Of a DNA stretch of 6,069 nt, positions 2,571 to 5,815 are shown in pieces. The position numbers and the translations under genes are program-made. The notes below the pieces were generated by a model that saw only the letters and a program-made list of their open reading frames with translations, did not search any database and was not told where the DNA came from. Location of the stretch: IMG/VR virus record IMGVR_UViG_2713896896_000013; one strand, given 5' to 3'. Positions within the stretch are counted from its first letter, which is position 1. Each line of letters starts with the position of its first letter. Origin of the DNA: a virus. Lineage: Duplodnaviria > Heunggongvirae > Uroviricota > Caudoviricetes.

Positions 2571-2750
2571 CTATTCCTGTTCTTTGGCCTTGCGGCGCTG
2601 GCGGCGTTTGATCTCGCCTTTTGCGGCAGTAACTAAAAAACCGGCTGTACTTTCGCCAGGTTCTTTAAGTTGCTCAATATCATCCATTACTTCATGTGGG
2701 ATTCTGACAGTTGTCATTTGTGATTTTGCGTTCTTTGCACCAGTTGCCAT
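2571..2750 (-). CDS. Small ribbon-helix-helix-like DNA-binding protein (59 aa), putative transcriptional regulator
   Basis: Minus-strand ATG at 2748-2750 preceded by a strong SD AGGAGA (complement of 2758-2763) with a 7-nt spacer; stop TAG (complement of 2571-2573). Product: MATGAKNAKSQMTTVRIPHEVMDDIEQLKEPGESTAGFLVTAAKGEIKRRQRRKAKEQE. The pattern is a short beta-strand (TVRIP), helix, loop, helix and a basic tail, as in CopG/Arc-type RHH proteins. The 114-aa version in the ORF track adds a non-protein-like N-terminus with no RBS. Confidence 0.5.
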   Translation of the reverse strand: MATGAKNAKSQMTTVRIPHEVMDDIEQLKEPGESTAGFLVTAAKGEIKRRQRRKAKEQE

Positions 2751-2939
2751 TTCTGGATCTCCTAAAAATTGGTGTATGTCAGTATACGCAAAAAAAATGA
2801 TAAAAAAAGGCTTGAAGTGTATTTCACCAGTGAGTAAATTAAAAAGCAAAGGTGAAATACACCTGAAAGAGCAACGCCCCGCAGTGCTCGCAACACATGC
2901 AGGGCGTCTAACCACAAACCGTTAACAGGAGTAACGATT
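2751..2939. promoter_or_regulatory. Divergent promoter/operator region between the RHH-like gene (minus) and the icd-like operon (plus)
   Basis: Candidate + strand sigma70 promoter: -35 TTGAAG (2812-2817), 17-bp spacer, -10 TAAATT (2835-2840). Perfect 12-bp inverted repeat GTGTATTTCACC (2817-2828) / GGTGAAATACAC (2851-2862) with a 22-bp spacer, overlapping the -35/spacer and the predicted start region. Candidate minus-strand -10 TATACT (complement of 2781-2786). The promoter hexamers are weak-to-moderate matches only. Confidence 0.35.
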
Positions 2940-3137
2940 ATGGCTGTAAAACAGCATACCCCACGCCTAGCGCACACACAAACCGCCTTTGTATGGCGTT
3001 TTCTGGCACTGAGTGCCGGAGAATCCCAGATCATCCACGTCACCGCATGGACGGAACGCGAAGCGCGTAACCGTTGCCCGTCCGGCTGTATTGCCGTATT
3101 CGCTGCCCGTATCCGTCAGGGGGTGTGCCATGCCTGA
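2940..3137 (+). CDS. Small protein (65 aa), tentatively Icd-like (host cell division inhibitor Icd family)
   Basis: ATG at 2940 with SD AGGAG (2927-2931) and an 8-nt spacer; stop TGA at 3135-3137. The translation MAVKQHTPRLAHTQTAFVWRFLALSAGESQIIHVTAWTEREARNRCPSGCIAVFAARIRQGVCHA recalls the signature I remember for Icd-like small proteins of P4-like islands (F-W-R-F-x-A ... E-x-E-A-R ... F-A-A-R). The family assignment is from memory, not a search. Confidence 0.55.
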   Translation: MAVKQHTPRLAHTQTAFVWRFLALSAGESQIIHVTAWTEREARNRCPSGCIAVFAARIRQGVCHA

Positions 3138-3450
3138 TATATCAAAATACCAGTACCTGATTAATCCGCATTTTAACTGTGAGCATGATATTGCTAAAAA
3201 GGTTTATTCCGCTGCGGATATGGCTACTGACAATATATCAATGGGTATTGCATCAATTGGTAACCTGATGTGGCATGCGGCAGAAAATGAGGACTATGAC
3301 GAACAGACCATGCGCATTGACATGGGGAATATTGGCTTGTTACTGGCAATGCTTGGGCAGTTTGATATTTCGTTACGGTGCACCATTGAAAATGCCACAG
3401 ATGCATTAAATGCCATAAAGAAAGCGAATACTGATTCAAATCGGGGATAA
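3130..3450 (+). CDS. Hypothetical protein (106 aa)
   Basis: ATG at 3130 overlaps the upstream stop by 8 nt (ATGCCTGA), implying translational coupling; stop TAA at 3448-3450. Product MPDISKYQYLINPHFNCEHDIAKKVYSAADMATDNISMGIASIGNLMWHAAENEDYDEQTMRIDMGNIGLLLAMLGQFDISLRCTIENATDALNAIKKANTDSNRG is acidic with no motif I recognise. The longer track ORF from 3013 would overlap the icd-like gene out of frame and is not favoured. Confidence 0.6.
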   Translation: MPDISKYQYLINPHFNCEHDIAKKVYSAADMATDNISMGIASIGNLMWHAAENEDYDEQTMRIDMGNIGLLLAMLGQFDISLRCTIENATDALNAIKKANTDSNRG

Positions 3451-3456
3451 ATAATC

Positions 3457-3756
3457 ATGAGAACATATTTATCTGGCTTGACTGCCAGCGGTTATGCACA
3501 CCCCAAAATTATCCCCGGCGCTATTTATCTGGATAAGAACGGTAACAGAGTAACGGTAAAAGAACTGATGTTTGATCGTGTTTATTTTATCCGTGATGGA
3601 TATTCATTTCTTAGTTCGCTGAACGTGGAGATCTTTATTTGCAGATTCCGGCGGGAAATCCCGACTTCCAGAAATAACCATGTGTCACGTGTGGATGTGG
3701 ATAAAAAACTACAGGAACTGAAAAACATGATTGCCGCGTGGAGAGAGCAGAAATGA
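3457..3756 (+). CDS. Hypothetical protein (99 aa)
   Basis: ATG at 3457 with an SD-like GGGGA about 10 nt upstream. Its stop TGA (3754-3756) overlaps the ATG of the replication gene (3753-3755) in an ATGA arrangement. No recognisable motif. Confidence 0.6.
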   Translation: MRTYLSGLTASGYAHPKIIPGAIYLDKNGNRVTVKELMFDRVYFIRDGYSFLSSLNVEIFICRFRREIPTSRNNHVSRVDVDKKLQELKNMIAAWREQK

Positions 3757-5570
3757 AAAAAGCGCCAAATTTAAAACACCAGCCGCGTGACAAAATGACG
3801 GAAGTCATCATTTTTGCGGGTAGTGATGCGTGGGCACATGCGAAACAGTGGCAGGAACAGGACGGGCGACTGGCTGGCGATAACGTCCCTCCTGTCTGGC
3901 TTGGAGAGCAACAACTTGCCGAACTGGACAACCTGCAAATCGTACCGGACGGACGCTATCGCGTGCGTCTCTATCAGGCGGGGTTATTGCGTCCGGGGCT
4001 TGTTAATACCATCGGGCAGAAACTGGCAGCGGCAGGTGTCAGGGATGCTGATTATTATCCTGAAGGAATGCACAGCCAGAAACGGGAGAACTGGCGCGAA
4101 TATCTGGAACGTGAGCGGGGAGAGCTGGCGGAAAAGAAAAAGGTAGTTGAACTGCCTGTAAAGAAAAAAGAGCGGGTAAAAGACGATAACGCTTCATCAC
4201 TGGCACTTAACCAGATGGGAGCAAGTCAACGCGGCGAAGTTCTCCTGGCACATTATGGCGGTGAACTGGCGATTCATGCTGACTCTGACACTGTTCACCA
4301 TTACAACGGCGTTGTATGGGAGCCAGTACAGGATAAAGAATTACAGCGAGCTATGGCACAGATTTTCATTGATGCGGAGATCAGCTATTCGCAGAACGCC
4401 ATTAAATCGGCGGTCGATACCATGAAGTTAAGTTTGCCTGTTATGGGGAATACAGCCCGTAACCTGATTGGATTCAGTAACGGGGTATTTGATACCAGAA
4501 CAGGTAATTTTCGGGAGCATAACAAAAACGACTGGTTGTTAATTGCCAGTGAATTACCTTTCAGCCCACCAGCAGAGGGGGAAACGCTGGCAACACATGC
4601 GCCGAATTTCTGGAAGTGGTTACGCCGTTCGGTGGCTGAGAATGACCGCAAGGCGGATCGCGTACTGGCTGCATTATTCATGGTGCTGGCGAACCGGTAC
4701 GACTGGCAGTTATTCATTGAGGTAACAGGTCCAGGGGGAAGTGGTAAAAGCGTGATGGCGGAGATTTGCACCATGCTGGCGGGTAAGGCCAACACAGTAT
4801 CGGCAAGCATGAAGGCGCTGGAAGATGCAAGGGAACGCGCGTTAGTGGTTGGCTTTTCGCTGATTATCATGCCGGATATGACCCGCTACGCTGGTGATGG
4901 GGCAGGAATTAAGGCCATTACAGGCGGTGACAAGGTGGCAATTGACCCAAAACACAAAGCCCCCTACTCAACGCGTATTCCGGCAGTAGTGCTGGCGGTT
5001 AACAATAACGCCATGTCATTCAGTGACCGCAGCGGGGGGATCTCACGTCGTCGGGTGATATTCAATTTTTCGGAAGTTGTACCGGAGAACGAACGCGATC
5101 CAATGCTGGCGGAAAAAATAGAAGGTGAGCTGGCGGTAGTGATTCGCCATCTGCTTACACGGTTTGCTGACCAGGACGAAGCCAGACGCCTGTTATATGA
5201 GCAGCAGAAATCTGAAGAAGCACTGGCGATAAAGCGAGAGGGGGATTCGCTGGTGGACTTCTGCGGCTATCTCATGGCGTCGGTAATGTGTGATGGCCTG
5301 TTAGTGGGTAATGCTGAAATTGTGCCATTCAGCCCACGCAGGTATCTCTATCATGCCTATCTGGCTTATATGAGGGCACATGGGTTTGGTAAACCTGTAA
5401 CACTGACGCGCTTCGGTAAAGATATGCCGGGGGCAATGGCGGAATATGGCAGGGAGTATATGAAACGGAAAACGAAGCACGGTTTGCGTTCAAACGTGAC
5501 ACTGACGGAGGAATCAGAAGACTGGATGCCATCATGTGTATCGGTCACTAATGACGATAGCAAAAATTAA
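3753..5570 (+). CDS. Replication initiator with D5_N-like region and SF3-type P-loop helicase domain (P4 alpha-like / PICI Pri-Rep-like primase-helicase family)
   Basis: 605-aa ORF from ATG 3753 (the track gives a GTG 5 codons upstream at 3738). Walker A motif GPGGSGKS in FIEVTGPGGSGKSVM; candidate Walker B hydrophobic run plus Asp in LVVGFSLIIMPDM. The segment IGFSNGVFDTRTGNFREHNKNDW resembles the D5_N motif that precedes SF3 helicase domains in P4-family primase C-terminal-domain proteins. It is immediately followed by an iteron array. Stop TAA at 5568-5570. Confidence 0.88.
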   Translation: MKKAPNLKHQPRDKMTEVIIFAGSDAWAHAKQWQEQDGRLAGDNVPPVWLGEQQLAELDNLQIVPDGRYRVRLYQAGLLRPGLVNTIGQKLAAAGVRDADYYPEGMHSQKRENWREYLERERGELAEKKKVVELPVKKKERVKDDNASSLALNQMGASQRGEVLLAHYGGELAIHADSDTVHHYNGVVWEPVQDKELQRAMAQIFIDAEISYSQNAIKSAVDTMKLSLPVMGNTARNLIGFSNGVFDTRTGNFREHNKNDWLLIASELPFSPPAEGETLATHAPNFWKWLRRSVAENDRKADRVLAALFMVLANRYDWQLFIEVTGPGGSGKSVMAEICTMLAGKANTVSASMKALEDARERALVVGFSLIIMPDMTRYAGDGAGIKAITGGDKVAIDPKHKAPYSTRIPAVVLAVNNNAMSFSDRSGGISRRRVIFNFSEVVPENERDPMLAEKIEGELAVVIRHLLTRFADQDEARRLLYEQQKSEEALAIKREGDSLVDFCGYLMASVMCDGLLVGNAEIVPFSPRRYLYHAYLAYMRAHGFGKPVTLTRFGKDMPGAMAEYGREYMKRKTKHGLRSNVTLTEESEDWMPSCVSVTNDDSKN

Positions 5571-5581
5571 ACTTATGGAAT

Positions 5582-5815
5582 AACTGTTCACCACTGTTCA
5601 CCCTGTCATAAATATCTTTTATATCAGTATATTATAGGGTGAACAGTTGTTTATGAACTGTTCACCAAACTATTCACTGTTCACCTTTTTGATTGTTTAT
5701 TGAGCTTCAAGGGTGAACAGTGGTGAACAGTTGGTGAATAGTTTTTGTGAAACTGTTCACCCCTTAACATTATGAATTAAAAGAGAAAATATCAAAAGGT
5801 GAACAGGTGAAGGGT
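5582..5815. repeat. Iteron array, candidate replication origin (9-mer GGTGAACAG / CTGTTCACC, both orientations)
   Basis: CTGTTCACC at 5584-5592, 5594-5602, 5658-5666, 5677-5685 and 5753-5761. GGTGAACAG at 5638-5646, 5712-5720, 5722-5730 and 5798-5806, plus a degenerate GGTGAATAG at 5733-5741 and partial copies (ctgtca 5603-5608, ctattcac 5670-5677, ggtgaaggg 5806-5814). Tandem copies are phased at 10-11 bp. AT-rich stretches at 5606-5637 and 5762-5797 could act as unwinding elements. The core octamer TGTTCACC is, as I recall, the alpha-protein binding iteron of the P4 ori and crr. Confidence 0.75.

Follow-up and report, generated by a model that had tools for sequence, protein, structure and literature searches.

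A predicted three-operator switch, probably controlled by a YlcI/YnfO-family ribbon-helix-helix protein, at the left end of a phage satellite

The DNA analyzed here, hereafter called the window, is a 6,069-nucleotide viral sequence (IMG/VR record IMGVR_UViG_2713896896_000013) that forms the left end of a satellite of the phage-inducible chromosomal island (PICI) type. From left to right, the window contains a tyrosine integrase gene (1-1428), an open reading frame (ORF) of 228 amino acids (aa) without family assignment (1415-2101), a gene for an excisionase/AlpA-like helix-turn-helix (HTH) protein (2243-2431), and, on the minus strand, a 59-aa YlcI/YnfO-family gene (2571-2750; protein start MATGAKNAKSQMTTVRIPHEV) that is predicted to encode a ribbon-helix-helix (RHH) repressor. 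A 189-bp intergenic region (2751-2939), which is the subject of this work, separates that gene from an icd-like gene on the plus strand (2940-3137; NF033153, 63 bits). The icd-like gene is the first of a rightward operon that continues with an ORF at 3130-3450, a DUF4222 gene, and a P4-type primase gene (3753-5570), after which an iteron field of GGTGAACAG repeats extends from approximately 5580 to 5810. The order of integrase, alpA-type regulator, primase or replication gene, and iteron origin is that of the regulatory module of Gram-negative PICIs and capsid-forming PICIs (cf-PICIs), a module shared with the prototype EcCICFT073 and with the capsid-encoding relatives L001 and L002.

The intergenic region had been described in a first-pass annotation as a back-to-back promoter region in which a perfect 12-bp inverted repeat was positioned as an operator. 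The repeat is exact, as GTGTATTTCACC (2817-2828) and GGTGAAATACAC (2851-2862) are reverse complements of one another; once the flanks are included, the arms are 88% complementary over 17 nt (2812-2828 and 2851-2867), and 22 nt separate them. When dinucleotide-preserving shuffles were scored for a perfect 12-bp inverted repeat with a spacer of 3 to 60 nt, one was found in 40 of 2000 shuffles of the whole window (2%) and, when the intergenic region alone was shuffled, in 1 of 5000 trials. The two other perfect 12-bp inverted repeats of the window both fall within the iteron field.

Promoter elements were compared between the window and related loci, 77 of which were taken from one-genome-per-species contigs and 80 from viral contigs; approximately 130 related loci were compared in all. 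For the icd-like operon, the annotated −35 element TTGAAG (2812-2817) and −10 element TAAATT (2835-2840) are present on the plus strand, 17 bp apart, with an inferred start at approximately 2847. A general promoter scan did not list the pair, which scores 8 of 12 against a threshold of 9. Both hexamers are nonetheless conserved in relatives: TTGACG, TTGAAG, or TTGAGG occupies a fixed position in 49 of 53 unique loci, and TAnnnT follows 17 to 18 bp later in 52 of the 53, with many different hexamers fitting that pattern. For the repressor gene, a −10 element TATACT lies on the minus strand (2781-2786; predicted start, approximately 2774), and almost every one of the 53 unique loci has TATACT or a one-base variant there. 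The leftward promoter has a weak −35 element with a T-rich tract upstream, and its transcript would carry a Shine-Dalgarno sequence, AGGAGA (minus strand, 2758-2763), 7 to 8 nt before the repressor ATG (2750 to 2748). The divergent promoters proposed for this region are supported by conserved hexamers on both sides.

Comparison of loci indicated that the inverted repeat is part of a larger arrangement. The repeated unit is an 11- to 13-bp pseudo-palindrome in which a frame, GGTG...CA(C/G)C, surrounds a 5-bp core, and it is present in three copies, which we define as O1, O2, and O3. O1 (2771-2782; GGTGTATGTCAG, core TATGT), a copy missed when only the two arms were counted, spans approximately −8 to +3 of the leftward promoter and overlaps the TATACT −10 element by two bases. 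O2 is the left arm (2817-2828; core TATTT) and lies between the −35 and −10 elements of the icd-like operon promoter, at approximately −30 to −20, such that the last base of the TTGA(C/A/G)G hexamer is the first base of O2. O3 contains the right arm (2851-2863; GGTGAAATACACC) and is the O2 site in inverted orientation, at approximately +5 to +15 of the rightward promoter. The layout is constrained: O1 begins 21 nt from the ATG of the small gene in all readable loci and always adjoins CAGTATAC, O1 and O2 are 44 to 46 bp apart in the scored loci, and O2 and O3 are either 22 to 26 or 34 to 36 bp apart, with O3 overlapping the rightward −10 element by two bases in the short-spacing variant. The same three-site layout was seen in every readable locus except L045, which lacks O3. 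Loci with TTGCGG, TTGTGG, or TTAATG were skipped by the −35 anchor pattern, and reading by eye found the same three sites in them.

The orientation of the sites is not conserved. In an alignment with the 78%-identical relative L002, the arms GTGTATTTCAC and GTGAAATACAC are replaced by GTGCGATTCAC and GTGCGATGCAC within unchanged flanks, so that the second copy is a direct repeat, and the third, leftmost copy is altered in the same way. In many specificity classes, O3 is likewise direct rather than inverted relative to O2. Both arms are therefore placed as operators on the icd-like-to-primase promoter, as first proposed, but their inverted symmetry is not a conserved feature. Similarly, the sites are positioned to occlude the promoter, but a single dimer or tetramer bridging both arms is not implied, and in view of the variation in orientation and spacing we reject the two arms as one site for a single tetramer. 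We conclude from the comparison that the putative functional unit is the single site and not the inverted symmetry, which is class specific.

Two side observations concern the layout. In L045 (Xenorhabdus anantnagensis), O2 is joined directly to sequence that normally lies 3′ of O3, and the segment between the direct-repeat operators, including the −10 element, is deleted. The deletion apparently arose by recombination between direct-repeat operators and should leave the rightward promoter dead, which suggests that the direct operator orientation has a cost. In loci with short O2-O3 spacing (L016, L022, L043, L050, L081 [20753-20775, which is EcCICFT073], and others), an extra palindrome, CCTTGA-N4-6-TCAAGG, lies directly 3′ of O3 and would fold as an 8-bp hairpin at the extreme 5′ end of the rightward transcript. 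The palindrome could be an mRNA-stabilizing 5′ hairpin or another protein site, and it is absent from the window, which has the long O2-O3 spacing.

The operator cores co-vary with the 59-aa protein. All three cores change together between elements (mean, 0.4 mismatches of 5 within one locus), and they track residues 12 and 14 of the predicted RHH strand. In a sample of the classes, the window strand SQMTTVRIP (residues 10 to 18) goes with core TAT(G/T)T, SKKLEARVP with GCTGA, SQQLNARFP with CGATT, SLQVSVRLP with GTGTT, SQQIVSRVP with GCAT(T/G), both SQALKARVP and SQSLKSRVP with GGCCA, SKRFDVRVP with TCCGA, SQK(L/V/I)QARAP with GA(G/A)TC, and SQSVTARI(P/A) with TAAGA. Pairs of loci that share residues 12 and 14 have cores 93% identical and spacers 70% identical, whereas in pairs that differ at these residues core identity falls to 27%, the random level, with the spacer at 57%; the frame remains 97% identical across classes. 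When the O1 and O3 cores were shuffled among the 15 strand types, the observed agreement was reached in 0 of 20000 trials. Moreover, in a held-out test the O2 core was as predicted from residues 12 and 14 in 37 of 38 unique viral-contig loci, most of which belong to the Met/Thr class of the window. EcCICFT073, also held out, has the strand SQALKARVP, and the predicted core GGCCA is present in both its O2 and its O3.

The properties of the small protein are consistent with such a role. It is a member of the YlcI/YnfO family (NCBIfam NF041551; 64 bits against a cut-off of 30; E, 9.2e-18), and RefSeq names the gene and its homologues "YlcI/YnfO family protein," a family to which NF041551 assigns no function. 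Structure prediction gave an N-terminal strand followed by two helices, the RHH fold. The start MATG is kept in all homologues, and across 47 unique homologues G32-E33-S34 forms the G-x-S/T/N turn that opens helix B, in which E33 never varies and G32 (0.49 bits) and S34 (0.63 bits) seldom do. Variability along the strand is highest at residues 12 and 14 (2.18 and 2.70 bits), which are flanked by invariant K9, S10, R16, and P18, and positions 13, 15, and 17 are hydrophobic; this pattern fits a strand that turns residues 12, 14, and 16 toward the DNA. Assignment to a known RHH group failed: Pfam has no family for the protein, a profile search of PDB sequences returned only noise (best E, 0.57, brinker), the best Foldseek match to the predicted structure had an E value of 2.5, and thus neither a curated RHH family nor an RHH protein of known structure could be matched. 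The family is compact (91 clusters at 50% identity), and a literature search found no functional study of YlcI/YnfO proteins or of an RHH protein in satellites. We conclude that the 59-aa protein is a predicted RHH repressor, and the co-variation of residues 12 and 14 with the core lends indirect support to a model in which the sheet of an RHH dimer probably enters the major groove at each of the repeated operators.

Outside the canonical RHH core, a C-terminal segment, E-I-K-R-R-Q-R (codons 46 to 52; window 2595-2615), is invariant or nearly so even in homologues that are approximately 50% identical elsewhere. The segment could contact the DNA backbone, link one dimer to another, or serve as the point at which an inducer acts.

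One way in which co-variation could mislead is if the sites are bound by another protein (the AlpA-like protein, the Icd-like protein, some other island protein, or a host factor) and the RHH-like gene is merely linked to them. Some co-variation is expected from linkage alone; moreover, the AlpA-like protein is a DNA-binding HTH protein that activates island genes in EcCICFT073 (PMC6092414), and the PHROGs families of the Icd-like proteins (phrog_1743 and phrog_6196) are labeled "transcriptional repressor." The AlpA-like protein was nevertheless rejected as the binder, as an identical AlpA-like protein accompanies three operator classes, and one operator class accompanies many, very different upstream genes. 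The Icd-like protein was rejected as well, as 13 pairs of Icd-like proteins at least 90% identical are found in different operator classes, and 113 pairs at most 40% identical nonetheless share the repressor strand. A host factor cannot account for cores that differ between islands of related hosts, nor for two cores in the single genome of Pectobacterium brasiliense CFBP8736 (L008 and L035). Finally, variation in the RHH protein peaks at precisely the outward-facing strand positions. Because the core tracks the RHH strand and not the AlpA-like, Icd-like, or replication proteins, we infer that the RHH protein is the binder, and a different binder seems unlikely. The RHH protein, one of two that the first-pass annotation had named for DNA-binding assays, is thus the neighbor whose putative DNA-reading strand co-varies with the sites.

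The repeat might instead act as a nucleic acid hairpin, whether terminator, attenuator, or cruciform. The arms are able to pair over 12 to 17 bp, the right arm alone, with the T run that follows it, appeared as a weak terminator-like site on the minus strand, and both arms would be included in a read-through transcript of that strand. A hairpin is impossible, however, in the many classes in which O3 is a direct copy of O2, and arm spacing ranges from 22 to 36 bp. Furthermore, the predicted rightward start falls between the arms, and the third copy 45 bp away would be left unexplained. We consider a hairpin function very improbable.

Equally improbable, in our estimate, is that the arms are weak sites for the P4-type primase, which would bind the GGTGAACAG iterons and so tie replication to operon expression. 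Repeats of TGTTCACC are bound by the P4 alpha protein, and the iteron unit of the window, densely repeated as GGTGAACAG and CTGTTCACC in both orientations 3′ of the primase gene (approximately 5580-5810), contains that repeat. Cross-talk with the replication protein had been suggested because O3 and the iteron have GGTGAA in common. This hexamer (6 of 9 bases) is all that the arms share with the alpha-protein iteron, too little for them to count as copies of it, and its last two bases, AA, fall in the variable core and do not follow GGTG in other classes (for example, GGTGGCTGACACC), such that only the GGTG frame is conserved. Operator cores vary without relation to the replication module. In particular, L001 has a repressor and operators identical to those of the window but a different replication module, in which AAAGTGAG iterons lie 3′ of a RepA-type helicase gene; exact GGTGAACAG was not found there and one-mismatch matches were not above chance. 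The idea of cross-talk is thus not supported. An Rfam match to MIR1508 in the iteron field of the window was set aside as irrelevant. Last, a chance repeat, conceivable since short repeats are frequent in AT-rich promoters, is virtually excluded by the shuffles above and is already refuted by the conservation and concerted change of the sites in approximately 130 loci.

All loci share a conserved leader that runs from O3 to the start of the icd-like gene, and it indicated a further element, a predicted cis-antisense small RNA (sRNA) of approximately 80 nt that resembles SymR (minus strand, 2864-2945). Its 5′ hairpin (2945 to 2910) is complementary to the AUG of the icd-like gene and to its Shine-Dalgarno sequence, AGGAG (plus strand, 2927-2931), itself located in a small hairpin loop. 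The predicted 5′ end, AGCCAU, lies opposite AUGGCU. A GC-rich terminator hairpin (2908 to 2873) and a U-rich tail follow. The predicted antisense promoter has a −10 element, TATGCT (minus strand, 2953-2958), 7 nt upstream of the sRNA 5′ end within icd-like codons 5 to 7, and a weak −35 element, TTGTGT (2981 to 2976). TAnnnT was found at exactly this 7-nt offset in 46 of 47 loci. Six different hexamers fit the pattern and specify different amino acids, and each of the 46 loci with the −10 box has T at the wobble base of codon 6 even though C would be synonymous.

The structure of the leader is specific to the minus strand. An RNAalifold consensus contained 24 pairs, and compensatory changes were seen at 15 of these; in the minus-strand fold G-U pairs outnumbered A-C pairs 130 to 4, an excess that points to the minus strand as the folded one. 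Minimum free energy was −37.5 kcal/mol for the antisense strand (z, −5.25) and −21.4 kcal/mol for the sense strand (z, −1.27), and a U-rich tract follows the GC-rich hairpin on the antisense strand only. The G-U/A-C asymmetry and the folding energies reject a leader structure that acts in the sense mRNA. The Rfam symR model (RF01809) matched at full length on the antisense strand with 29.6 bits in the window and 27.6 to 41.0 bits in six relatives; the gathering score of 61 was reached in none of these seven, which leaves the RNA outside the SymR family. Nor did any other Rfam family pass its gathering score, either in the window or in the 11 loci searched; a match to RF00043 (R1162-like antisense RNA; 28.9 bits against 55) lay on the sense strand in the window only, and a cspA match in the L002 flank is the host cspD gene and irrelevant here. 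We propose that a cis-antisense RNA of approximately 80 nt, built like SymR though not of its family by the Rfam criterion, covers the Shine-Dalgarno sequence and AUG of the icd-like gene. A literature search found no functional study of an antisense RNA at an Icd-like gene.

The Icd-like protein itself has no Pfam family, and its labels diverge: "transcriptional repressor" in PHROGs, as noted above, and cell division inhibitor in NCBIfam. The icd-like stop overlaps the start of the next ORF (3130), which suggests translational coupling.

Taken together, we consider it likely that the intergenic region is a three-operator switch controlled by the divergently encoded 59-aa YlcI/YnfO-family RHH protein, with the arms of the inverted repeat as O2 and O3. 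One RHH dimer would bind each operator and insert a two-stranded sheet into the major groove; the invariant frame would be read by K9, S10, and R16, and the core by residues 12 and 14, which face outward and are Met and Thr in the window. Occupancy of O2 and O3 would shut off the icd-like-to-primase promoter, and occupancy of O1, on the −10 element and +1 position of the repressor's own promoter, would give negative autoregulation. The antisense RNA, if constitutive, would add a second, posttranscriptional lock over the icd-like ribosome-binding site. Relief of repression might come from an anti-repressor of the helper phage or from an AlpA-activated upstream promoter that reads through the convergent repressor gene. 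Such an AlpA-driven override is plausible because no terminator-like site was found on the plus strand from the end of the alpA-like gene (2431) to the icd-like start codon (2940); the terminator-like hairpin and T run 3′ of the repressor gene (2460-2482) are oriented for the minus strand only.

Further features lie to the left of the repressor gene. Two tandem 20-nt repeats beginning AATCCAG (2101-2140) and an 18-nt inverted repeat, AGCCATGTAAACCAGATA and TATCTGGTTTTCCTGTCT (2133-2150 and 2161-2178), are located 5′ of the alpA-like gene, and the repeats at 2101-2178 are candidate sites for AlpA autoactivation or for a helper-phage signal. The 228-aa ORF had no match in Pfam, NCBIfam, or PHROGs; in relatives, differing genes fill the place between the integrase and alpA-like genes, and the ORF is likely accessory cargo.

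The module is widespread. It was found across Enterobacterales, where it is common, and in Orbaceae and Pasteurellaceae, and homologous sequence is present in 969 of 5426 complete E. coli genomes, with at least 80% of the 701-bp query in only 39. A more distant subfamily (L068 to L079, from Serratia, Pectobacterium, Gilliamella, Bisgaard taxon 46, and Xenorhabdus) begins MATGxKNNKSxxKxIRFPHE... and has a different C-terminal half; it keeps the layout, with three to four sites specific to each class, and has the leader and antisense module as well. In EcCICFT073 the module corresponds to L081 20474-21053 (E. coli CFT073, NC_004431.1, 1380473-1381052), and its repressor and icd-like genes carry the late-added RefSeq locus tags C_RS30120 and C_RS30125. 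The late tags suggest that both genes were missing from the original EcCICFT073 annotation, which would explain their neglect in earlier work. The cf-PICI paper mentions neither a repressor nor a promoter, and the literature search returned no functional study of cf-PICI repressors. An extra 57-aa ORF, C_RS30800, follows the repressor gene of EcCICFT073 and has no counterpart at that place in the window.

This kind of switch is already known, and what is uncharacterized is the YlcI/YnfO family and its role in satellites. The immI region of phage P22 combines the RHH repressors Mnt and Arc with divergent Pant and Pmnt promoters and the sar antisense RNA. No relationship to it was detected by sequence (no Pfam match and no Rfam sar match), and the present system has a single repressor in place of two and three separate single sites in place of one tetramer operator; it differs further in its many natural specificity classes and in being carried by a phage satellite rather than a phage. 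Sequence identity to the Omega repressor of inc18 plasmids (pSM19035) and to CopG/AmrZ-type RHH proteins is only 11 to 17%, and whereas Omega heptads are contiguous and cooperatively bound, the sites here are 22 to 45 bp apart and have a conserved palindromic frame. Like SymR of E. coli symE, a structured RNA of approximately 77 nt, the predicted sRNA would have its 5′ end opposite the third base 3′ of the start codon and would overlie the Shine-Dalgarno sequence and AUG of a small toxic-type gene, and the full-length model matches its strand in seven loci; unlike SymR, its target is icd-like and not symE. The P1 immI c4-icd-ant arrangement is similar in that a regulatory RNA, predicted in the present case, lies ahead of an icd-type gene and the stop of that gene overlaps the start of the following one, but P1 c4 is a processed, trans-acting, sense-strand RNA, and no C4-family match was found here. 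In Gram-positive PICIs, the Stl/Rpr repressor gene is divergent from the excision-replication operon with operators between them (PMC6092414). The position and logic of the present module resemble those of Stl/Rpr in Staphylococcus aureus pathogenicity islands, but Stl proteins are unrelated to the 59-aa RHH protein, and whereas derepression by helper phage has been demonstrated for Stl, the likeness here is one of gene position and intervening operators.

If the recognition model is true, a strand of the SQMTTVRIP type goes with GTGTATTTCAC-type sites and one of the SKKLEARVP type (12K, 14E) with GTGGCTGACAC, and the series of strand variants and operator cores is a ready data set on how RHH proteins read DNA. 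Small orthogonal repressor-operator pairs could follow if binding is confirmed. For EcCICFT073, a laboratory model without a previously identified repressor, a specific 59-aa protein and three sites are now indicated as candidates. On the present sequence evidence, the replication genes of a phage-parasitic island are probably held off by a small repressor. It is possible, though we rate it at somewhat below an even chance, that the YlcI/YnfO protein is the missing master repressor, or immunity determinant, of Gram-negative PICIs and cf-PICIs, the model islands included. In that case, the approximately 15 or more specificity classes would be immunity groups that do not cross-repress, as in lambdoid immunity regions, induction would override the switch, and the SymR-like RNA would be a second lock on a toxic Icd-like product.
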